Assembly (NCBI GenBank): GCA_041651195.1
Contig: JBAZJR010000003.1
Span: 12,662 to 76,661, forward strand
DNA from: Patescibacteria group bacterium
Lineage (GTDB): Bacteria > Patescibacteriota > Patescibacteriia > Patescibacteriales > UBA12465
DNA length: 64,000 bases
Direction of reading: 5' to 3'
Part shown: positions 3,860-47,429 of the stretch, one piece after another
Position numbering within the stretch: position 1 is the stretch's first letter
How the letters are laid out: every line of letters starts with the position of its first letter
Notes under the pieces: generated by a model
Told to the model about the DNA's origin: nothing
Databases searched by the model: none
The model's input: the letters and a program-made list of their open reading frames with translations, nothing else
Program-made: the position numbers and the translations under genes

Positions 3860-4801
3860 TTATTTTATTTTTTGATAAAAATACTGTATTAGGTCGAATA
3901 AGCCCAATCGAGCCAGAATATATTTAAGCCAGCCGAACGCGAAATTATGTCGAGTTGTGTATTCGTCGGCGGCTTGATTGGCGACGAAGCCGGTTGGATG
4001 CCGCAAAGGGAAGTTGAGTTCCGTCGTCGGTAAGTTGGAAAATTTATTTTTTTCATCTCGACAATTTTCAGCTAGATATCCGAATCCGATATTCTTGACC
4101 AGGTTTCGATTGGGCGTTATAGCCAGGCCGCCGTTTCTAAACAGGGCATAAGTCCATTGGAAATCCCAGGTCGCCGATTTATGATGATACACTTGATTAA
4201 AAAGCTGTTTCCAGGTTATCTTATCGCGATCGCTCTTAAAATATTTTTTGAGGGTCTGATTTTTTAAAAAATCATGATAGGTCGCCATTTCTAGATCATA
4301 TTTTTGCCAAGCCCGTCTCCAAGTCGCCCATCCCCAGATATGAGGGATACGGGAAAAATAATAGTCACTTTGTCCGACTTTTTCCGGTTGGAAAAAATTT
4401 CCTGAAATATGCATGATTTGCTCATTATCTTTATATTTTTCTAACAATTTTTCGCAGAATAAGAAAAAAGAATCATTAGGCAAGCAGTCATGCTCCAGGA
4501 TTATGCCGTTTTTATTTGTAGCGAAGAACCAATCGAGCGCCTCCTTGAGAGCTTTTTGGATGCCTAGATTTTTAATTTGGAATAAAGTTTCTACGCGACA
4601 ATCCCAATCGATATTTTTAAGCAGGTAATCTCTGACTTCCTGGCAATTTTCCCTTTCGCCTGTTATATCTAGCCTTGGCCCGTCGGCGGCAATGAATAAT
4701 TTTCGCGGCTTAGCTTTTCTGATGGCCGCCAAGGTGACACTAGCGGTATCGAGCCGGTTAAAGACAATAAATAATATTGGGGTGTCTAGTGGTTTGGTCA
4801 T
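3860..4801 (-). CDS. nucleotide-diphospho-sugar transferase (GT-A fold, HlpA-like family)
   Basis: PILFIVFNRLDTASVTLAAIRKAKPRKLFIAADGPR…GIILEHDCLP pattern. The likely start is the ATG at 4801 (MTKPLDTP), which forms an ATGA overlap with the stop of the upstream gene at 4798. Confidence 0.6.
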   Translation of the reverse strand: MTKPLDTPILFIVFNRLDTASVTLAAIRKAKPRKLFIAADGPRLDITGERENCQEVRDYLLKNIDWDCRVETLFQIKNLGIQKALKEALDWFFATNKNGIILEHDCLPNDSFFLFCEKLLEKYKDNEQIMHISGNFFQPEKVGQSDYYFSRIPHIWGWATWRRAWQKYDLEMATYHDFLKNQTLKKYFKSDRDKITWKQLFNQVYHHKSATWDFQWTYALFRNGGLAITPNRNLVKNIGFGYLAENCRDEKNKFSNLPTTELNFPLRHPTGFVANQAADEYTTRHNFAFGWLKYILARLGLFDLIQYFYQKIK

Positions 4802-5547
4802 ATTATTTTTGATTTTATTCTCCGGTATAGCCACTTGGAACTATTTTGGTATCGATTCGGATAATGCCGCAGGTAATTTTTAACCACCTGATAGACCATT
4901 TTTATCATTTTTTGATCATTATCGCGGTAATTTGAATTATTGGCCGTATAGTTGGTGGTCTGGTCGGCTAAGTTGGCAATTCGGCCCCTAGTTCCTAATT
5001 TTAACCATAAAGAATAATCTTCCGCCAGATTTATCTGATCATAGCCGTTGACTTCAATTGCGATAGCGCGCGGGAACATAGCTGTCGAATGAGCAAACAT
5101 ATTTTGGGCCGTCATTTTTTTTCGGATATCCTCATTATCTATCAGATGATTTTTTTTTCCGATCATCCGTCCATCTTTATCAATCAGGTTAAAGGCTGTC
5201 CCGACAAGATTATATCCGCTTCGATCTAAGAAATTCGCTTGCTTCTTTAACTTATCAGGATCGGTCCAATAATCATCATCATCGAGTACCGCCACATATT
5301 TCCCTCGTGATAATTTCAAGCCGATATTCCTAAGAGCGCCGATACTATCATGTTTGGCTACCGGGGTATATTTAATCCGCGCATCTTTAAAAGATTTGAC
5401 GACTTCTGCCGTGTCATCTTCTGACCCGTCATCAATGATAATCAGTTCCCAGTCCGTCTCTGATTGCGCTTGGACGCTATTTATCGCTCGGCCTAGGAGT
5501 CGGGCGCGATTATGGGTTATAATATTTACGCTGATTTTCGGGGGCAT
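4798..5547 (-). CDS. glycosyltransferase family 2
   Basis: MPPKISVNIITHNRARLLGRAINSVQAQSETDWELIIIDDGSEDDT…VLDDDDYW, the classic GT2 N-terminal signature with a DxD motif. Confidence 0.85.
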   Translation of the reverse strand: MPPKISVNIITHNRARLLGRAINSVQAQSETDWELIIIDDGSEDDTAEVVKSFKDARIKYTPVAKHDSIGALRNIGLKLSRGKYVAVLDDDDYWTDPDKLKKQANFLDRSGYNLVGTAFNLIDKDGRMIGKKNHLIDNEDIRKKMTAQNMFAHSTAMFPRAIAIEVNGYDQINLAEDYSLWLKLGTRGRIANLADQTTNYTANNSNYRDNDQKMIKMVYQVVKNYLRHYPNRYQNSSKWLYRRIKSKII

Positions 5548-5606
5548 TTTTTTATGACTATTGTTTTTTTCGTTGCGACGTCAAATACGATGTAATATAT
5601 ATTTTT

Positions 5607-6932
5607 TTATCTCCCGCCGCGGCTGAGCATCGTGGCGATGGTCTTGAGCGTGATAGAGATGTCTAGATAGATAGAGCGTCGTTTCAGGTAGTAGAGATCG
5701 TATTGTAATTTTTCCAGGCTATCTACTATGGTCGTTGAATGATACTTGCCGGAAATCTGGTCCCAGCCGGTGAGCCCAGGCTTGATCAGGAGCCGGGTCA
5801 GATAGAAGGGGATGGCGCGCGCCAGTTCTTCAGCGATCTCCGGGCGTTCCGGCCGCGGTCCGATCAAACTCATCTCCCCGGCCAGGATATTGAGGACTTG
5901 AGGAATTTCGTCTAGGCGAGTGCTCCGCAGGAAAGCGCCGAAACCGGTTACCCGTTCATCGGCGGGAGCGGTCGGCAGTCCATCGTTATTTTCTACGCGC
6001 ATAGTCCGGAATTTCGTGACTAGGAATCTTTTACCTTGCCGTCCCAGCCGTTCTTGCCGGAAAAAGACCGGGCCGCGGCTCGTTAATTTTATCAGCCCGG
6101 CGATGAGCGGCCAGCCGGGCAAGGAAATGATCAGGATTAGCAGAGCGGCGGCGTAATCGATCGCTTGTTTGAGAAAATTAAAATAATTTTTTCTGCCTTC
6201 CTGGAGGTTGGTCAGGAACCAATCTGGCCCGATCTCTTCGACCGGTATCTTGCCGGTCAAGAGTTCGTAAAAATCCGGGTAATTAAAGAAATTGATTTTA
6301 TCGGCGAGGCAGGCGAAGAGGGCGGCGCTGATCTTCCGGCTATCGCCGAAGTCGTCGCCGACTACGACGGTATGGATATTTTTATTTTTTATAGCGTCCG
6401 GGAGAGCGGCCAAATCTTCCGCTCGGGTGCTGGTCCAGGCGATCTGGTAGCCGGCGCCAGGCTGAGCCGCTAACTCGGCCAGTAATTTTTGCGTCCGCGC
6501 GTTATCGCCGATCAGAGCGAGATTTTCTTTGAGGAGCAGGGAATGGAGCGCGGCTTGGCAGAGTCGGCGCCAGATCAGGAAAAAAACCAAGAAAAGCAGG
6601 CTGAAGATAATTAAGTTAGTTTTTGGCGCGAGGTCAGTCTCGGCGTATAGGTAAAAATACAGAGCCGATAAGATAACGCTCAGGAGAGCGACACTGCCGG
6701 TGGCGTTTAAGAATTCCCGGCTCCGGACGCGCCAATTAAGATTATAGAGGCTATTGATATAGATCAGGAGGAGCCAAATGAAAAAAACCGGCCCGAAAAT
6801 CGGCCAATGGGACCGCCAATAATGGTCGAGCGAGGCGAGCGGGTAGCGGATCGCCAAGGTCAGGAAAAGAGCCAGGTGCAGCCCGGATAGGTCGCCTAAA
6901 AAGAGGATAGTTTTTTTTAAAAGATTAGGCAT
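5607..6932 (-). CDS. polyprenyl-phosphate glycosylphosphotransferase (WbaP/bacterial sugar transferase family), priming enzyme
   Basis: 441 aa with N-terminal TM helices. The C-terminal domain reads PVFFRQERLGRQGKRFLVTKFRTM…DEIPQVLNILAGEMSLIGPRPERPE…KPGLTGWDQI. Confidence 0.85.
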   Translation of the reverse strand: MPNLLKKTILFLGDLSGLHLALFLTLAIRYPLASLDHYWRSHWPIFGPVFFIWLLLIYINSLYNLNWRVRSREFLNATGSVALLSVILSALYFYLYAETDLAPKTNLIIFSLLFLVFFLIWRRLCQAALHSLLLKENLALIGDNARTQKLLAELAAQPGAGYQIAWTSTRAEDLAALPDAIKNKNIHTVVVGDDFGDSRKISAALFACLADKINFFNYPDFYELLTGKIPVEEIGPDWFLTNLQEGRKNYFNFLKQAIDYAAALLILIISLPGWPLIAGLIKLTSRGPVFFRQERLGRQGKRFLVTKFRTMRVENNDGLPTAPADERVTGFGAFLRSTRLDEIPQVLNILAGEMSLIGPRPERPEIAEELARAIPFYLTRLLIKPGLTGWDQISGKYHSTTIVDSLEKLQYDLYYLKRRSIYLDISITLKTIATMLSRGGR

Positions 6933-37495: not shown

Positions 37496-40400
37496 ATGTT
37501 CAGAAAAGCCTTGTTACTGCCGATAGTGGCAGTTTCTGGCGTTCTATTGTTTTTTAGTCTACCCCCCTCCGCTTTAGCTCAAACACCCACGATTCACTCT
37601 GTCGCCACAGGCGGCAGTTGGAGCGACAGTAGCACTTGGGTAGAAGATGCCGTGCCTGGCTCAGATGATATCGTAGAAATTAATGGGACGGTGTACATTA
37701 CGAATGATACGACTATCGCTGGCCTGGTCATTGCCAGCGGTGCTACATTGGAAAGTAATGTCTGGTCAGCGCCCAGACTCACCGTTAATGGCGATGTCGT
37801 TAATAACGGCCTGATCACTGAATTAAGTATCCCTTATCATATTTTCAGTCTCTATCTGACTATTTCCGGCAATATCACGAATAACGGAACTTGGAACAGT
37901 TCTTGGACTGATTTGTCATCGACCCAGAGTCGAATCATTGACGGGGCTAACCCTATCAACAGTCCGGTGACTTTCCTGGATAATTTTGAAATCTTAAACA
38001 ACCCCGTTTTTAATGGCGGGGTTGATTTTAATGGTAAAACGGTCTCCTTTGGTGCCACCAGCACCGGCCTGACCTTAGTTGGAGGAAGCTCTACCCTATC
38101 AGGGACGATCGTTTCTAATTCTAGTAATCAAAGCCTGACGGTGGCCGGCGGATCGTTTACGGGGACTGGATCAGGTTCTATCCCCGGTCCGGCTAGTTTT
38201 GTCATTTCTGGGAGCGCTAGTGTCGGAGGAACAATAGTAGCTAGTACTACTGTTTTCGCCGCCGGCTCACCGGCTTTCCACGGCGATTTTACGTCCGACC
38301 AATTCATTATAGAAGGCGAAGGCGGCAAGGCTATCAATGCCGATACTACTTTTAATGGCCCCTTAATAATCGAGCAGGGCGCGACTTTACAAAGCGCTTA
38401 TTGGGCGGCCCCCCGACTCACTATTAACGGCGATGTTATTAATGACGGAACTATCACAGAAATAAGTATTCCTTACAATGTTTTTAGGCTTTATCTGACT
38501 ATTTCCGGCAATATCACGAATAACGGAACTTGGAACAGTTCCTGGACGGATCTTGCTTCCTCGCAGAGCCGTGTTATAGATGGTTCCGTGCCGATCAACA
38601 GTCCGGTGACTTTCCTGAATGATATGGTGCTACTGAATAGCCCGAATTTTGCCGCTGGCGTGGATTTTAACAGTCATAACATCATACTGGCGACCAGCAG
38701 TACTGGAATAGTTATCAGCGGCGGAGACTCGATATTATCAGGTACGGTTATTTCCGTTTCCGATAGCCAAAGCCTGTCTTTGACCGGAGGTTCGGCTGTC
38801 GGAACGGCATCAGGCCAAATACCGGGGCCTGGCAGTCTTATTATTTCCGGCAGCACCAGTATCAGCGGTATAGTCAGCGCCAGCAGCACGGTGTTTGCTA
38901 CTGGTTCGCCGGTATTCCATGGCGATTTCGTAGCCGACCATTTTATCATGCGCGGTGAAGGTGGCAAGACCATCAATGCCGATACTACTTTTAACGGGCC
39001 GTTAACTATTGAATCCGGTGCGACTTTACAGAGCGCTTATTGGACAGCTCCCCGGCTTTCGGTTACTGGTGATGTGGTTAATGAGGGGACGATAACAGAA
39101 GTAAACATCCCATATCATACTTTTAGCCTTTATTTAACTATTTTTGGCAATATAATCAATAATGGTGCCTGGAGCGCTTCAGAGACTGACGTTGCTTGGC
39201 CGGCCGTACTCGGCGCGACAGGGTATCTATTCAATGTTTCTGCCGATAATGATAATTGGCCGGATCCCGTTACCACGGCCAATACTTATTATGAAATCTC
39301 CGATTTGGTCAGCAGCGCAAGATATTGGCGCATCCGTGCGGATCTAGGTAACGGGTTATACTCGCCTTGGTCAAGCATCAAGCTGATAAACAATTCAGGC
39401 TTCGGCGGGTTTTCTTTCAACGCCAGCGCACCTGCCGGCCGGTCACTTATGGCCACCGCGCCGTTTACGCTGACTTTGCAAGCTAAAGACGTTAATGGGA
39501 ATAACTATAACTATAGCGGAACGATCGCTCTATCAGCCACTAATGGCGCGACGACTACGCCCAGTCAAATCAGTATGACCGGCGGTTATTGGTCTGGCAC
39601 AACTACCGTGGCTGAATTTGGTAACGGGGTTCAGCTAGTCGCAAGCAGTAGTAATGTAACTAGCTACAGCGACGGGATGAATTTTTTGAAGAAGCCGGTG
39701 ATTATCATTCCGGGGATTATTAGTAGTTATTTACATAAAGACGATTATGGTTTCCCGGAAGTTTGGCCAAACCTAGTGCAAATGGCTCTACCGGGAGATG
39801 ATTCATATTTAGACGACTTAAAGATGGATGCGTATGGAGAGCCGCTTTCGCCGTCTTTAATGGTGCCAACGGATATTTTTAGAGAAATCGCTTTTAATGA
39901 TATTTTCCAAGGATTAATTACTGAGCTAACGTCGAGTGGCAGCTATACAGAAAATACCAATCTCTTTGTTTTTCCGTACGACTGGCGCTATAGCATAGAT
40001 TGGATTGCCTCAAGCAGCCCATACGCCTCGTCTACATCGCTTAGAGCTAAGATTGAAGAAATAAAAAACAGCACTGGCGCGGAAAAAGTAGACATTATTT
40101 CCCATAGTATGGGCGGTTTAGTCGCTAAATATTATATTGAGCACGTAAATACAAGTACGGTAGACAAGTTTATTGATGTGGCTACGCCGCATTTAGGAGC
40201 GCCAAAGGCCGCTAAGGCGTTATTATATGGTGATGATTTTGGCTTTACTTTATTTGGCCCAATTGGTATCAATGAAACAAAAATGAAAGAGATTTCTCAG
40301 AATTTTTCATCAGCCTATAACCTTTTGCCCAGCCGAGGTTATTTTGATGCTAGTAGCACGATATATAATGCTTATATAGCAGATTTATATGACTATGATA

Positions 40401-41563
40401 ATAATAGCGTGACCGGCAACTTAGATTATGATGAATCAATTGACTTTCTAAATAATAATAACTTAAATTCCAGCATGGCCAGCTCTAGCGATACTTTGCA
40501 TAACGACTTGGATAACTTTGATCCTGATAATTATGGCGTTAAAGCTTATAATATAATCGGCTGCAATCAGCCGACCATCAGCCGAATTTATATTATTAAC
40601 CATTATGCCTCCAGCAGCTATGAGTATGGTCTGGGTTATGTAAACGGTGATGGTACGGTCCCGCTAAAGAGCGCGCAAGCTCTCAATAATTCACTAGGAA
40701 CTTATTATACGACGAGTACCACACATGCCTTCCTGCCAAGCTTTGACGACAATAAGTGGTTAATATATGATATCCTCAATTCTACCTCTAGCCCTTTTGT
40801 ATTTAATTACACTCAATATCCTGAAATGACTATAGATAGCGGCGATTGTACTCCTTTGGACGGCTGGGAAGTCAGCTACCATAGCCCCATCGCCCTCCAT
40901 ATCTACGATGACCAAGGTCGCCACATCGGCCCGGACGCTAAAGGCAATATCGAAATAAACATACCCGGCGCCGCCTATGACATCATCGGCGACAATAAGT
41001 TTGCCTTTGTGCCCAAAGGCCGCAACTATAAGATAATCGGCCAAGCCACCGGATTAGGCCATTTCAACGCTCGCATCCAGGATATCCAAGCTGGGAAGAC
41101 CATTTCTACCGCCTACTATAACGAAGTGCCCATTAAGTCACTAAAGACTAATATTGAGATTGATTTTGTCAACAAGCAACCTAACTATGAGATGAAAATA
41201 GATCAGAAAGGAGATAGAGTATTTAGGGATAAGGTACGACCAAGTGCCATTCTTAACACCAAAGAGTCAGAAGATAGGATTAAACCAGAAACTAAGGCTA
41301 TAATCAATGACCAGACAATTAAGCTAGTGTCGACTGACGATAACTCTAAAATCCTCAAGACCGAATATAGCTTAGACGCGGGCAAGACCTGGAACCTTTA
41401 CACCAAGCCAATCGACATCTCCGGCATCAAAGGTGAATCAACTATTCAGTACAAATCGACTGATCGGGCGGGGAATGAAGAGATAGTGAACAAACAGAAT
41501 ATCTCAAAATCGACCGGCATCAGTAAGTCCCGCCTGTTTGAGGTGAGCAAGATAAGATTTTGA
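37496..41563 (+). CDS. giant secreted multidomain surface protein: signal peptide, 2.3 x 213-aa beta-helix-like repeats, FN3/Ig-like modules, LCAT/PGAP1-like alpha/beta-hydrolase (lipase/phospholipase) domain, C-terminal beta-sandwich plus Ig-like module
   Basis: 1355 aa. Signal peptide MFRKALLLPIVAVSGVLLFFSLPPSALAQTP. The hydrolase domain spans about 39689-40760, with FPYDWRYS (39977-39988), nucleophile elbow ISHSMGG (Ser codon 40106-40108) and GDGTVPLKSA. The C-terminal motif is KTEYSLDAGKTWNLY…IQYKSTDRAGNEE. Confidence 0.75.
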   Translation: MFRKALLLPIVAVSGVLLFFSLPPSALAQTPTIHSVATGGSWSDSSTWVEDAVPGSDDIVEINGTVYITNDTTIAGLVIASGATLESNVWSAPRLTVNGDVVNNGLITELSIPYHIFSLYLTISGNITNNGTWNSSWTDLSSTQSRIIDGANPINSPVTFLDNFEILNNPVFNGGVDFNGKTVSFGATSTGLTLVGGSSTLSGTIVSNSSNQSLTVAGGSFTGTGSGSIPGPASFVISGSASVGGTIVASTTVFAAGSPAFHGDFTSDQFIIEGEGGKAINADTTFNGPLIIEQGATLQSAYWAAPRLTINGDVINDGTITEISIPYNVFRLYLTISGNITNNGTWNSSWTDLASSQSRVIDGSVPINSPVTFLNDMVLLNSPNFAAGVDFNSHNIILATSSTGIVISGGDSILSGTVISVSDSQSLSLTGGSAVGTASGQIPGPGSLIISGSTSISGIVSASSTVFATGSPVFHGDFVADHFIMRGEGGKTINADTTFNGPLTIESGATLQSAYWTAPRLSVTGDVVNEGTITEVNIPYHTFSLYLTIFGNIINNGAWSASETDVAWPAVLGATGYLFNVSADNDNWPDPVTTANTYYEISDLVSSARYWRIRADLGNGLYSPWSSIKLINNSGFGGFSFNASAPAGRSLMATAPFTLTLQAKDVNGNNYNYSGTIALSATNGATTTPSQISMTGGYWSGTTTVAEFGNGVQLVASSSNVTSYSDGMNFLKKPVIIIPGIISSYLHKDDYGFPEVWPNLVQMALPGDDSYLDDLKMDAYGEPLSPSLMVPTDIFREIAFNDIFQGLITELTSSGSYTENTNLFVFPYDWRYSIDWIASSSPYASSTSLRAKIEEIKNSTGAEKVDIISHSMGGLVAKYYIEHVNTSTVDKFIDVATPHLGAPKAAKALLYGDDFGFTLFGPIGINETKMKEISQNFSSAYNLLPSRGYFDASSTIYNAYIADLYDYDNNSVTGNLDYDESIDFLNNNNLNSSMASSSDTLHNDLDNFDPDNYGVKAYNIIGCNQPTISRIYIINHYASSSYEYGLGYVNGDGTVPLKSAQALNNSLGTYYTTSTTHAFLPSFDDNKWLIYDILNSTSSPFVFNYTQYPEMTIDSGDCTPLDGWEVSYHSPIALHIYDDQGRHIGPDAKGNIEINIPGAAYDIIGDNKFAFVPKGRNYKIIGQATGLGHFNARIQDIQAGKTISTAYYNEVPIKSLKTNIEIDFVNKQPNYEMKIDQKGDRVFRDKVRPSAILNTKESEDRIKPETKAIINDQTIKLVSTDDNSKILKTEYSLDAGKTWNLYTKPIDISGIKGESTIQYKSTDRAGNEEIVNKQNISKSTGISKSRLFEVSKIRF
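37700..39180 (+). repeat. in-frame tandem coding repeat, period 639 bp (213 aa), about 2.3 copies
   Basis: A 50-bp perfect match tatctgactatttccggcaatatcacgaataacggaacttggaacagttc occurs at 37853 and 38492, with a diverged third copy at 39131. Protein units read GATL(E/Q)S..W.APRL(T/S)(V/I).GDV(V/I)N.G.ITE..IPY..F.LYLTI.GNI.NNG.W. Confidence 0.9.
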
Positions 41564-41610
41564 TTAGTATTTTTATTTTAATTAATTATACAATTAATTT
41601 GTTTAATGTT

Positions 41611-41919
41611 ATGAAGAAAATTTTGTCGAGCGGGTCGCTCAAAAATGTTAGTTATATACTGGGGTACTGGTTTATATTTGTGATTACGCCAGCAATAGTG
41701 GCTCGTTTTCTTTGGCTTAAAGACAATAATAGCAGCGTGTCTGGCTGGTTGACATTATATATTGTCTTTATCGCACCGTTTTTGTATTTTATTCCGTATA
41801 ATAATACTAAATCGAATCGTAGATTTTTATTTTTACTGTTTGGTTTGTTAATACCTTATTTATTTATTTATTTATTTATTTATTTTGAATTTAGAAAAAG
41901 TTTTCATCCAGGTTTTTGA
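41611..41919 (+). CDS. small polytopic membrane protein (partner A of the giant protein's C-terminal module)
   Basis: The track ORF starts at a TTG at 41560 that overlaps the giant gene's stop. The ATG at 41611 (MKKILSSGSLKNVSYILGYW…) matches the start of its paralog at 42624. 102 aa, mostly hydrophobic. Confidence 0.6.
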   Translation: MKKILSSGSLKNVSYILGYWFIFVITPAIVARFLWLKDNNSSVSGWLTLYIVFIAPFLYFIPYNNTKSNRRFLFLLFGLLIPYLFIYLFIYFEFRKSFHPGF

Positions 41920-42050
41920 CATAGATTGATTGATAACTTTAGCTCTTAGATGACCAAGGTCGCCACATCGGCCCGGACGCCAAAGGCCATATCGAAATAA
42001 ACATTCCCGGTGCCGCCTATGACATTATTGGTGATAATAAATTTGCCTTT

Positions 42051-42605
42051 GTGCCCAAGGGTCATAATTATAAGATAGTAGGCCAAGCCACCGGCTTAGG
42101 CCATTTCAATGCGCGCATCCAGGATATCCAAAAAGGAATGACCATCTCTACCGCCTACTACAATGCGGTGCCCATTAAATCACTGCAGACTAATATCGAG
42201 ATTGATTTTATCAACAAAAAACCAAATTACGAAATGAAGATTGACCAGAAAGGGGATAAAGTATTTAGAGAGAAGATGCAGCCTAATGCCATGCTTGACG
42301 CGCAAGAGTCAGCGGATAGAGTGAAACCGAAGACCAAGGCAGAATTAGTCAATAATTCTATAAAGTTAACCTCTTCCGACGATAATTCAAAAATCCTTAA
42401 GACCGAATACAGCTTAGACGGAGGGAAGAGTTGGACTCTATATACTAGGCCTATTAGTATCTCTGGTATTTCAGATGCCTCTGCTATTCAGTATAAATCT
42501 ACTGATCGGGCAGGGAATGAGGAGATAATTAAAGAGCAGGATATTATAGCCAATCAAGATGCTAAAAAGCTTAATCTTTCCGATCAAAGAGAAGTTAGAT
42601 TTTAA
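42051..42605 (+). CDS. orphan 5'-truncated paralog of the giant protein's C-terminal module. Homology and open frame begin at 41943/41949; the first canonical start is the GTG at 42051
   Basis: The frame opens after the TAG at 41940-41942. Codons 41949-42050 (DDQGRHIGPDAKGHIEINIPGAAYDIIGDNKFAF) align with the parent gene but contain no ATG, GTG or TTG. The copy ends …YKSTDRAGNEEIIKEQ…REVRF*. Confidence 0.6.
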   Translation: MPKGHNYKIVGQATGLGHFNARIQDIQKGMTISTAYYNAVPIKSLQTNIEIDFINKKPNYEMKIDQKGDKVFREKMQPNAMLDAQESADRVKPKTKAELVNNSIKLTSSDDNSKILKTEYSLDGGKSWTLYTRPISISGISDASAIQYKSTDRAGNEEIIKEQDIIANQDAKKLNLSDQREVRF

Positions 42606-42623
42606 TAATTAATAATTAACTTT

Positions 42624-42899
42624 ATGAAGAAGATTTTAACAAGTGAGCAGTTAAAAAATATTTGGTATATACTTGGTTATTGGTTGGTATTTGTGGTTAT
42701 GCCAATTTTAGTTATGTTTTATCTTTTATTTATTGCGCGTGATAACGGCAATATGTCCGGCTGGATAGCCTTGTATATTATATTTATCGCCCCATTTTTA
42801 TATTGTGTCCCATACTTACTGTCTAAACCAAAATCTAAATTGTTATTTATTTTTTGGGGATTGGTAGTGCCTTATTTATTTATTTATATACATATATAG
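42624..42899 (+). CDS. small polytopic membrane protein (partner B; paralog of 41611..41919)
   Basis: 91 aa. MKKILTSEQLKNIWYILGYWLVFVV…SGWIALYIIFIAPFLYCVPY…VPYLFIYIHI, roughly 55% identical to partner A by eye. Confidence 0.6.
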   Translation: MKKILTSEQLKNIWYILGYWLVFVVMPILVMFYLLFIARDNGNMSGWIALYIIFIAPFLYCVPYLLSKPKSKLLFIFWGLVVPYLFIYIHI

Positions 42900-45404: not shown

Positions 45405-47429
45405 ATGTCTAAATTGGTAACATCTTTTTTTATTTTATCGCTCTTTATAGTTGAGCCGGTTTTGGCTAGCATTACGCCGAATGACCCTTATTATGGCCAC
45501 CAATGGTACCTGGCGAAGATCAAGGCGGATAGCGCCTGGGAAAAGGTTTCCGCCAGTCCGGATATCGTGATCGCCGTGATCGATTCCGGTATTGAGATCG
45601 AACATCCGGATTTACAGGATAATATCTGGCGGAATCAGGCGGAGCAGACGGGGAATGGGCGCGATGATGATCAGAACGGTTTTATCGACGATCTTAATGG
45701 TTGGGATTTCGTGAATAATGTTCCTGATCCCGCGCCGAAATTTATGGCCGGTTGGACCGAGTCCGGCGTTTCGCACGGCACGATGGTGGCGGGAGTGATC
45801 GCCGCCAGCGGCAATAACCGGGAGGGGACAGTCGGCGTAACTTGGCGGGCGCGGATCATGGCGCTCAAAGCCTTGAATGATAAGGGCGAGGGGAAGATCA
45901 GCGATGTCATCCGGGCGATCGATTATGCCGTGAATAACGGCGCGGATATCATCAACCTTAGTTTTGTCTCTTTCAGTTACAGCGACGCCTTGCAAGAAGC
46001 GATTCGCCGGGCGCGCACGGCTGGCGTTTTGATCGTCGCGGCGGCCGGCAACGAACAGTCTGCGGGCGAAGGCTATAATATTGATCAAACCCCTGTCTAC
46101 CCGGCTTGTTACGACGGCACGCTCGGCGATAATATGGTCATCGGCGTAGCTGCCACCGATGCTTTAGACCAGAAAGCGCGTTTCTCGAGCTATGGCTCCC
46201 GTTGTGTCGATCTGACTGCTCCGGGAATCAGTTTTTTTAATACTGTGACGCCAGGCAGCGTTGCCGGCGACCCGAATCGGATCTATGACGGATATTGGTC
46301 AGGCACTTCTATGGCCGCGCCGCTCGTTTCGGCCGCTCTCGCTTTGATCAAACAGGCTAATCCGGAATTAAGCGCGCGGGAAATCATCAATATCCTTTTC
46401 CTTTCTACGGATAATATAACTAAGCTTAATCCGGATTATCCGGGCGGCTTGGGTAATGGCCGCTTGAACGTCAATCGGGCGGTCGAGCTCGCCAAGGAAA
46501 AGCTTTTCAGCCGTTTGGGCCGCTTGGTGGTGATGCCGGTTAGTGGCAGTAAAGAGCCGAAGCTAACCGCCGCTAACGGCGATTTAGTCAGTCCCTTGGC
46601 TCGGCTTAATTTCAAGAGCGGCTCTATCGCGTCCGGGGATATCAGCGGGGATGAGATAGCGGAATTAGTCCTAGGGGCGGCCAGCGGCGGCGAGCCCCAG
46701 GTCAGGGTTTATAATACTAATGGCAAACTTTTGAAACAATTTTTGGTTTTTGATAAAAAGTTTCGCGGCGGAGTCAATGTCGCGGTCGGCGATCTCAATG
46801 GCGATGAAAAATCAGAAATCATCGCGGCCGCCGCTTCCCAGGGCAACGGCCAAGTCAAAGTTTTTGACGCTAACGGGAAATTAATCAGGCAATTTAACGT
46901 AGATAATAATAAATATTGGCGCGGCGGCTTGAATCTGGCGGTCGGCAACATCGACGGCCGGACTGTCCCGGAAATAATCGTCGCTTATGGCGCGGGCCAG
47001 GAGCCTTGGATTAAGGTTTATACGGCGGGCGGCAAATTAGCACATTCCTTCCTGGCCTATGAAAAAAAATTCCGGGGAGGGGTGAAAGTCGCGGCTGCAA
47101 CCCTAAATGGCCGCGCCGACCACGATAAGGCGCAGATTATCGCGGCGCCCGGCGCCGGCCGTGATCCGCAGATCAAGATCTTTAACGGCCAGGGGCAGAT
47201 GCAGTCCCAGTTTCTAGCTTACGGGCGCAATTGGCGCGGCGGGATCAACCTGGCGGTTGGCGATTTGAATAATGACGGTATCGCGGAGATCGCGACCGGC
47301 GCTCAGCCTGGCGCGGCGCCGCATGTCCGAGTTTTCGACGGCCGCGGCGGCCTCCTAGAATCTTTTTACGCCTGGGAAGAAGGCTTTAAAGGCGGCGCGA
47401 ATATTGGTATAATAAAGATAAATAATTAA
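45405..47429 (+). CDS. secreted subtilisin-like serine protease (S8) fused to a C-terminal FG-GAP/VCBS repeat propeller
   Basis: Signal peptide. Catalytic triad contexts VAVIDSGIEIEHPDL (Asp), SHGTMVAGVIAA (His), SGTSMAAPLVSAA (Ser). After about residue 400 there are five or six repeats of …GD(L/I)(N/S)GD..(A/S)EI(I/V)..A…G.P.V(K/R)V(F/Y)…G.L…F. Confidence 0.85.
   Translation: MSKLVTSFFILSLFIVEPVLASITPNDPYYGHQWYLAKIKADSAWEKVSASPDIVIAVIDSGIEIEHPDLQDNIWRNQAEQTGNGRDDDQNGFIDDLNGWDFVNNVPDPAPKFMAGWTESGVSHGTMVAGVIAASGNNREGTVGVTWRARIMALKALNDKGEGKISDVIRAIDYAVNNGADIINLSFVSFSYSDALQEAIRRARTAGVLIVAAAGNEQSAGEGYNIDQTPVYPACYDGTLGDNMVIGVAATDALDQKARFSSYGSRCVDLTAPGISFFNTVTPGSVAGDPNRIYDGYWSGTSMAAPLVSAALALIKQANPELSAREIINILFLSTDNITKLNPDYPGGLGNGRLNVNRAVELAKEKLFSRLGRLVVMPVSGSKEPKLTAANGDLVSPLARLNFKSGSIASGDISGDEIAELVLGAASGGEPQVRVYNTNGKLLKQFLVFDKKFRGGVNVAVGDLNGDEKSEIIAAAASQGNGQVKVFDANGKLIRQFNVDNNKYWRGGLNLAVGNIDGRTVPEIIVAYGAGQEPWIKVYTAGGKLAHSFLAYEKKFRGGVKVAAATLNGRADHDKAQIIAAPGAGRDPQIKIFNGQGQMQSQFLAYGRNWRGGINLAVGDLNNDGIAEIATGAQPGAAPHVRVFDGRGGLLESFYAWEEGFKGGANIGIIKINN

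Follow-up and report, generated by a model that had tools for sequence, protein, structure and literature searches.

A tandem 3′ module behind a predicted lipase gene in Patescibacteria, similar in layout to Cdi and Rhs orphan modules

Introduction

For the orphan cdiA-CT/cdiI and rhs-CT/rhsI modules, both a displacement (“fossil”) model and a “silent repository” model have been proposed (Ruhe et al., 2016, PMC4927057), with experimental support for the Rhs orphan case (Koskiniemi et al., 2014, PMC3967940, as cited in PMC4927057). In Staphylococcus aureus, the TslA/TilA system combines a secreted antibacterial lipase with tandem immunity genes of variable copy number, and both toxicity and immunity were demonstrated (Garrett et al., 2023, PMC10730906). 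Here we analyze a stretch of 64,000 nucleotides (nt) from a Patescibacteria group bacterium (GenBank assembly GCA_041651195.1, contig JBAZJR010000003.1, positions 12,662 to 76,661; hereafter “the window,” whose first letter is position 1), in which the 3′ end of a giant lipase-bearing gene, together with the small membrane-protein gene that follows it, is repeated directly downstream as a 5′-truncated “orphan” tail with a small gene of its own. We consider the chances about even that this second unit is a displaced or duplicated orphan 3′ module of the lipase locus, within a recombination-driven birth-and-death array that is CdiA/Rhs-like but lies outside those families.

The original prediction, made from the letters of the window, had likened this repeat to orphan C-terminal/immunity modules and to silent recombination cassettes, and knew of no such system in bacteria of the Candidate Phyla Radiation (CPR). 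Our literature searches for such a locus in CPR/Patescibacteria likewise found nothing relevant. To our knowledge, almost no interbacterial conflict systems have been defined in this phylum.

Results

The 3′ end of a predicted lipase gene is repeated with its small neighbor

The features of the locus are as follows, in window positions and with lengths in amino acids (aa); TM stands for transmembrane.

37496-41563, forward strand: main gene, 1355 aa, a secreted/surface protein from the list of open reading frames (ORFs)
39902-40477, forward strand: LCAT/alpha-beta-hydrolase lipase domain, aa 803-994 of the main protein (PF02450, 96 bits against a cutoff of 21)
40907-41919, forward strand: unit 1, the main-gene tail plus small gene 1
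40907-41146, forward strand: handle of tail 1, its first 80 codons, all-beta
41147-41563, forward strand: distal part of tail 1, with linker, OmpL47-type domain, a basic tip of ~22 aa ending in RF, and stop codon
41611-41919, forward strand: small gene 1 (small partner 1), from an ATG, 102 aa, three predicted TM segments
41920-41942, forward strand: junction from small gene 1 to the orphan, unique sequence ending in the TAG at 41940-41942
41949-42899, forward strand: unit 2, the orphan tail plus small gene 2, a direct repeat of unit 1
41943-42605, forward strand: orphan tail, 220 open codons, with homology from 41944/41949 and its handle at 41949-42188
42354-42536, forward strand: OmpL47-type domain of the orphan (NF047446 match)
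42624-42899, forward strand: small gene 2 (small partner 2), from an ATG, 91 aa, a paralogue of small gene 1

A repeat search aligned 40902-41201 with 41944-42243 as a direct repeat of 300 nt (85% nucleotide identity, spacing 1042 nt), a similarity far above chance level, and in-register repeat blocks carry on through both small genes. Overall, units 1 and 2 are 75% identical in nucleotides, their tails 74% identical in amino acids, and the two small partners 53% identical (48/90 residues, near the ~55% first reported). The repeat of the gene's 3′ end plus membrane-protein gene was therefore recovered essentially where the original prediction had placed it, except that in-frame homology starts at 40907 in unit 1 and not at 40905; in unit 2 it starts at 41949. 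The orphan frame opens at 41943, straight after the TAG, and closes with RF and a stop at 42605, as the parent does; its translation contains orphan-specific stretches (GMTISTAYYNAVPIK, LNLSDQREVRF). Re-reading the frame after the TAG at 41940 again gave no ATG, GTG or TTG for 34 homologous codons. A canonical in-frame start first appears with the GTG at 42051, which near-cognate ATC, ATA and ATT codons alone precede, and the NCBI annotation holds just the 184-aa ORF from this GTG as a “hypothetical protein” (P0001). Our recount of the graded divergence between the two tails gave 58 identical residues among the first 62 (59 had been claimed), 96/130 in the middle (74%, against a claimed ~73%) and 7 of the last 26 (8 had been claimed), while the 11 synonymous-only and 2 non-synonymous differences in the first 40 codons came out exactly as counted before.

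The same array recurs in related Patescibacteria

A layout of lipase gene, small three-TM gene, 5′-truncated tail and second small gene was found at seven independent loci besides the window, with differing copy numbers: L001-L007 (16 ENA contigs from many samples), L008 (Logan), L009/L166, L011 and L012 (GenBank metagenome-assembled genomes, MAGs), L082, and L163/L162. A protein search with the orphan matched short ORFs only, whose contigs reveal orphan tail copies in other genomes. Downstream of the corresponding lipase gene, related genomes carry one to three extra units, each a 5′-truncated tail and a small TM gene; L011 and L012 reach three units and more. The hosts are Falkowbacteria-like Patescibacteria, and the genes flanking the array differ from locus to locus. 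The orphan always starts straight after the stop of the preceding small gene, at a tail residue that differs as follows.

L012 and L082: orphan starts at about tail residue 1
Window: at about tail residue 3
L011: at about tail residue 32
L001: at about tail residue 51
L008 and L009: at about tail residue 70
L163: at about tail residue 97
L011, third copy: at about tail residue 131

The tails belong to types A, B and C, which align over their full length at 46-62% identity, with identity highest at the start of the swapped segment; overall, at 46-89% identity, they represent homologous, allelic versions of a single beta-rich/OmpL47 fold. Tail remnants of 21-54 codons follow the last small gene in L001, L008, L009, L010 and L164, and three more loci beyond the seven hold eroded remnants. 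An amino acid-based reading of the 25-codon remnant in L010 as type B was rejected, its nucleotides being closer to its own main tail (83%) than to others (75-78%). In L092 (JGI Ga0224524_1001710, 4268-6324), six small-family ORFs stand in tandem behind a type-B lipase gene, three of type B, two of type A, and a last one in which the first TM segment is fused in frame to the final 42 type-A tail codons. The tail copy at 1-634 of L082 shifts frame between residues 41 and 42 (1-102 vs. 104-634), by a true frameshift or a sequencing error. We also considered P0004, on contig L161 (ENA GROS21-1 scaffold_285529, 758 nt), as a recombinant of gene body and tail, and rejected it: its ORF (113-688) joins a signal peptide and ~55 aa to tail residue 26 onward, a large internal deletion, and has an in-frame TAA inside the OmpL47 domain, and it is either a decayed variant or a chimeric scaffold rather than a switched cassette.

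The architecture of lipase plus tail is itself widespread in Patescibacteria (~150 loci); a small-family ORF lies within 3 kb at 32 of the 112 loci with enough downstream sequence, and two or more do so at 9. Neither integrase nor transposase genes were found in or beside the arrays. Because independent loci share the layout with differing junctions and remnants, the tandem is genuine and recurrent, and is best taken as part of a birth-and-death array.

Main and orphan tails exchange sequence

Divergence between the window's main and orphan tails is a mosaic. Over codons 1-80 the proportion of synonymous differences (pS) is 0.41-0.47, against 0.70-0.88 for the same codons between genomes, whereas over codons 81-220 it is 0.70-0.87, as saturated as in between-genome pairs. 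This implies that the orphan's handle split from the main gene later than its distal tail and small gene did. In L011, where the main tail is of the divergent type B, the first 90 nt of the orphan are 84-87% identical to the main tail and the remainder 49-65%, and the orphan's handle is, from this break, chimeric. L001 contains an exact 536-nt repeat that begins near tail codon 55, takes in the stop and the intergenic region, and extends as far as ATGAAAAAA; the small genes that it flanks are only 39% identical to each other. The L012 pair shows patchy pS, down to 0.16 in one block. In a tree, orphan and main tails interleave, and the window's two tails are not exclusive sisters. Taken together, these alignments show that main and orphan tails swap sequence.

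Base composition is also uneven. The GC content of third codon positions (GC3) is 0.39 in the lipase domain, 0.30-0.32 in the small genes and 0.38 in the distal orphan tail, all below the other long window ORFs (mean 0.59 ± 0.09, minimum 0.41), and genome-typical in the handle (0.54-0.61). Since low values in these three parts accompany a typical handle, the composition of 39776-42899, atypical for the genome, suggests exchange with AT-richer relatives.

Divergence between main and orphan tails bears the mark of protein-level constraint

Over 218 codons, the window's main and orphan tails differ by dS 1.48 and dN 0.167 (synonymous and non-synonymous divergence by the Nei-Gojobori method, NG86), for a dN/dS of 0.11, which is not near 1; the ratio is 0.09 in L008 (dS 1.1) and 0.20 in L012 (dS 0.52), against ~0.5 expected for a pair with one neutral orphan branch. 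With such ratios in three genomes, these main and orphan copies have evidently not diverged as neutral pseudogenes. A neutral copy would keep 218 codons open with a probability of ~0.03 at 0.15 substitutions per site and of 0.003 at 0.3. Private changes at family-conserved columns amount to 0.123 in the window's orphan and 0.099 in its main tail, and polarized differences number 20 orphan-derived and 14 main-derived.

The most constrained part of the orphan is the stretch of 34 codons before its first canonical start (proportion of non-synonymous differences, pN, 0.03), so translation from the GTG at 42051 cannot explain the constraint signal. The original prediction had read this as purifying selection on a segment that cannot be initiated. 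That reading does not follow, as a pairwise dN/dS sums the time that both copies spent as expressed 3′ ends and is no proof of selection on the orphan itself.

The main protein joins a predicted lipase to a conserved beta-rich tail

From its sequence, the 1355-aa protein has a signal-peptide-like N-terminus, three internal repeats of ~213 aa, an LCAT-type lipase domain and the C-terminal tail. Two of the repeats are 73% identical in DNA (37739-38031 vs. 38378-38670, spacing 639 nt), with the third copy around aa 497-560, and the repeats give a weak, sub-threshold bactofilin-like Pfam match. The lipase is predicted from a PF02450 match above the gathering threshold and has the GHSMGG nucleophile-elbow motif in its translation; the domain is absent from every orphan copy. 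In the tail, a beta-rich segment of ~110 aa leads through a linker to an OmpL47-type beta-barrel domain, after which comes a basic tip of ~22 aa. The OmpL47-type profile NF047446 (cutoff 40) scores 49.1 bits in the parent (aa 1270-1333, nt 41303-41494) and 47.5 bits in the orphan translation (aa 138-198).

Scans with Pfam, NCBIfam and PADLOC found no recognizable toxin domain in the main protein or its tail, in agreement with the earlier statement that this beta-rich, OmpL47-type tail is not a recognizable toxin. In the Pfam scan of the 1355-aa protein, haemagglutinin, TPS, PT-VENN, RHS and YD-repeat families gave no match at E<=0.1, and only LCAT and other alpha/beta-hydrolase families were hit. 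An AlphaFold2 model of the tail from a nine-sequence alignment was all-beta with a mean pLDDT (predicted local distance difference test) of 47, the OmpL47 region alone reaching 63-75; because of this low score the model is unfit for a fold search. When the tail alignment was searched as a profile against solved structures, nothing was found (best E=0.95). Between the window and L008, amino acid identity is 89% in the handle, 42-49% in the N-terminal half, 54% in the lipase domain, 69% in the distal tail and 36% in the tip; no other stretch of the protein is conserved as well as the handle.

The small membrane partners are hypervariable and shared among genomes

The small proteins have three hydrophobic (predicted TM) segments and, in the family alignment, the conserved motifs LGYW, APFLYxIPY and PYLFIY. 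No Pfam family is common to more than one of the 21 members, no NCBIfam match is meaningful (one at chance level, E=0.074), PADLOC gave no match, and a search of 5.8 billion proteins returned 13 matches only. They are hypervariable, with 35-60% identity and a dN/dS of ~0.32-0.35 (0.32 for the window pair). Their subfamilies are common to different genomes rather than confined within one, and the nearest relatives of small partner 2 are small proteins of other genomes (L082, L092_s4, L163_1).

At a coarse level, tail types match small-protein types, type-B tails in L011 and L092 preceding type-B small proteins. The finer co-variation of tip and partner that had been proposed was not borne out: within type A, Mantel tests gave no significant correlation of the partner with the tip (r=0.09, p=0.29) or with the last 90 aa of the tail (r=0.21, p=0.055). 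Nor is a variable tip, also proposed, a general feature, as main and orphan tips are identical in L001 and 76% identical in nucleotides in L008. In L167 (JGI Ga0451576_0002937, 5737-6190), which is syntenic with L001/L002 (flanks 87% identical in nucleotides), what is left of the lipase gene is the signal peptide (31 codons) and the final 8 codons of the tail, while the 102-aa small gene survives intact, standing alone with no lipase beside it.

Expression signals and other features of the region

Neither a terminator-like site, an Rfam element (E<=0.1) nor a meaningful inverted repeat was found in 40.0-43.5 kb, and RNA elements and invertase-type switches were dropped as explanations on these grounds. 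As no terminator-like site separates them, the two units probably share a transcript. A Shine-Dalgarno (SD)-like motif precedes only 2 of the 41 window ORFs of at least 200 aa, whose starts follow AT-rich sequence. With SD sites this rare in the genome, a missing SD at the orphan is uninformative and start calls cannot rest on SD.

Sigma-70-like hexamer pairs occupy homologous positions in the two tails (TTAACA-16-TAGGAT at 41253-41280 and TTGACG-16-TAGAGT at 42295-42322), ~330 nt 5′ of each small gene. They may be internal promoters or chance matches, their regional count being no higher than in shuffles.

Antisense ORFs in the handle (40760-41044 and 41946-42086, reverse strand) were set aside as mirror frames of the constrained sense frame.

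Two genes downstream of the array, a 674-aa ORF (45405-47429) resembles, from its translation, a secreted subtilisin-type protease with FG-GAP/VCBS-like repeats.

Discussion

A proposed birth-and-death array driven through the conserved tail

The reading to which we give about an even chance is that the locus evolves by homologous recombination through its conserved tail. The handle, the OmpL47 domain and the tail-to-small intergenic region would be the sole usable homology between units. The tail copy would be carried along because the small genes are too divergent to recombine and the tail offers the only homology for adding, removing or swapping them. Units could be added, removed or swapped by unequal crossing-over, by gene conversion, or by single-crossover (Campbell-type) insertion of an excised tail fragment plus small gene; such events would yield chimeric handles and push older 3′ ends downstream as orphans. 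Tail lineages would alternate between expressed and orphan positions and be renewed by conversion, and such renewal and position switching would keep orphans open and protein-like until deletions erode them. Array turnover of this kind would account for the variable truncation points, the lack of a conserved start, the constraint 5′ of the sole canonical start, the mosaic dS and the eroded distal remnants. The orphan tail would then not be a conserved stand-alone gene, and the extra small membrane protein encoded by small gene 2 would be the selected cargo.

What the small proteins do is a matter for speculation; they could be immunity-like self-protection or docking partners for the tail of the lipase protein. 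The matching of tail and small-protein types and the lone small gene of L167 give indirect hints of immunity, whereas co-variation at fine scale is not significant. Patescibacteria are lipid auxotrophs that live on other cells, which makes a giant secreted lipase a plausible tool for harvesting or attacking membranes, and an array of tail fragments and hypervariable membrane partners behind it suggests an arms-race or self-protection module. It is thus tempting to think of a polymorphic effector/immunity system, in which the secreted LCAT-type lipase attacks the membranes of the host or of competing epibionts, the three-TM proteins protect the producer by recognizing the tail, and the tail serves as a portable recombination handle for collecting, swapping and redeploying tail/immunity modules. 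We offer this extension tentatively, as a possibility rather than an expectation. If true, no system of this kind would have been described in CPR bacteria before; its immunity family would be new, and what is swapped would be a non-toxin “address” domain.

Several points weigh against a birth-and-death array of untranslated orphans. A start codon (ATG, GTG or TTG) lies within ~30 nt of the upstream stop in 5/9 orphans, and given these nearby starts and the rare use of SD sites, orphans may be translated independently or by coupling. The dN/dS of 0.09-0.2 at dS 0.5-1.5 in within-genome sister pairs (L008, L012) may equally reflect protein-level selection on translated orphans. A recombinant joining the window's gene body to the distal tail of unit 2 was not found, and conversion may have run from main to orphan or from orphan to main. 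Co-transcription of the units, non-translation of the orphan and ongoing recombination in this population are all things that we infer from the sequence.

These points lead to the most serious rival, namely that the orphan is an independently translated gene, started at the GTG at 42051, at an upstream near-cognate codon or by re-initiation after small gene 1, and yielding a free OmpL47-domain protein with a function of its own. The open frame and low dN/dS in the window, L008 and L012 are as expected for such a gene, as is an orphan that evolves no faster than the main tail at conserved columns, and starts sit at or near the upstream stop in several relatives (ATG at +17 in L001, overlapping TTG in L009, overlapping GTG in L163, GTG at +31 in L008); a missing SD means nothing in a genome that seldom uses one. 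However, neither the start nor the N-terminus is conserved, the truncations spanning tail residues 1 to 131 and many of them cutting the first beta domain; in the long orphans of L011, L012 and L082 the first start comes 23-68 codons in, and in the window the codons ahead of the sole canonical start are the most conserved. The product would have no signal peptide though its domain comes from a secreted protein, and short eroded remnants and the frameshifted L082 copy exist besides. We therefore regard an independently translated orphan as somewhat unlikely.

Another alternative is a passive one-off tandem duplication, with the orphan a decaying pseudogene fragment and neither tail copy nor array having a role. 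Partial tandem duplications are common, start codons are unconserved here, and the eroded remnants, the frameshifted L082 copy and the nonsense-bearing deletion variant L161 show that decay occurs. Such a history is nevertheless improbable in our view. The dN/dS values in three genomes fall well short of the expectation for one neutral branch, and under neutral drift through half the divergence seen here the frame would stay open with P<=0.03. Small gene 2 is undamaged, and its sub-lineage has members in other genomes. Arrays recur at eight independent loci, counting the window, with junctions that differ, chimeric handles and a 536-nt tract repeated exactly by conversion or duplication.

Silent cassettes for programmed surface variation, such as pilS in Neisseria, vls in Borrelia and the MgPa repeats in Mycoplasma, are many and diverse, and are converted unidirectionally into one expression site, with variation in exposed loops. 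An orphan that is promoterless, startless, 5′-truncated, in frame and apparently constrained would suit a cassette copied into the expression site to alter antigenicity or receptor specificity, and exchange between main and orphan is documented in relatives. Yet genomes hold just one or two such cassettes; they are direct repeats, so that a reciprocal exchange removes the unit between them; what is copied takes in the protein's most conserved part; identical or nearly identical tips in L001 and L008 store no diversity; and neither a recombinase, a G-quadruplex (G4)-like element nor an inverted repeat was found near the window array. The cassette reading entertained in the original prediction is thus quite improbable, and antigenic variation is unlikely.

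Finally, an assembly error that merged the 3′ ends of this gene from two strains into an artificial tandem can be dismissed as very improbable. In its favor, the window is part of just one MAG contig, the only record of the orphan ORF is a 153-kb contig, and some relatives' contigs break within the tail (L009, L166). Against it, units 75% identical in nucleotides are too divergent to confuse an assembler, a unique junction leads from the stop codon of small gene 1 into tail sequence from the middle of the gene, and different projects and assemblers recovered the architecture independently at the seven further loci, of which one is represented by 16 contigs from many samples.

Annotators should note that the 184-aa “hypothetical protein” is a piece of the upstream gene, as are comparable short ORFs in related genomes.

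Comparison with known systems

The locus is not a member of the CdiA-CT/CdiI or Rhs families, although their orphan modules are the closest analogues in how the array would work. As in Cdi and Rhs orphans, the 3′ end of the gene for a large exported protein recurs in the window and the seven loci as 5′-truncated copies that lack a start and keep the orientation of the main gene; the copies lie in tandem downstream of it, a small partner gene comes after each, and the orphan retains the homology to the main gene that allows recombination. The fossil/displacement and silent repository models both fit the patterns seen here. The original analogy with orphan C-terminal/immunity modules is supported as to layout, by the extra units in related genomes, the conserved handle, the chimeric or younger handle, the matching tail and small-protein types and the lone small gene of L167.

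The differences are several. Unlike CdiA, the window protein has no TPS/FHA, PT or VENN domain in the Pfam scan, and unlike Rhs, in which a YD-repeat shell and a PxxxxDPxGL core end precede the C-terminal domain, it has no YD-repeat match, its N-terminal region holding the three ~213-aa repeats. The tails here are alleles of one beta-rich/OmpL47 fold, whereas those of Cdi and Rhs are unrelated toxin folds, and where CdiA shows a sharp break in identity at the demarcation motif, identity here is highest at the start of the swapped segment. The enzymatic part, the lipase domain, sits upstream of what is swapped, and no copy includes it. The partner comes from an undescribed family of three-TM membrane proteins, and a Patescibacterium carries the array, with no integrase or transposase beside it.

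Silent-cassette systems share with this locus truncated, promoterless, in-frame copies of a surface gene that look protein-like without expression of their own. Unlike pilS, vls and MgPa, the arrays here hold one or two copies, a linked partner gene and a highly conserved copied segment, and the L001 orphan equals the main tail.

TslA/TilA resembles the locus in that a secreted lipase gene adjoins a variable number of non-identical small partner genes, reshuffled across conserved stretches. The proteins are unrelated: TilA are DUF576 lipoproteins and TslA is a T7SS (type VII secretion system) substrate with an LXG-like domain. No partial copies of the toxin gene lie between TilA immunity genes, and whereas toxicity and immunity are demonstrated for TslA/TilA, the window's lipase is a predicted one. 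The OmpL47-type (NF047446) and LCAT (PF02450) families provide domain assignments only and say nothing on array or partner. The orphan-module layout is thus the part already known from Cdi and Rhs; what appears to be new, by this comparison, is its lipase-tail/three-TM version in Patescibacteria.

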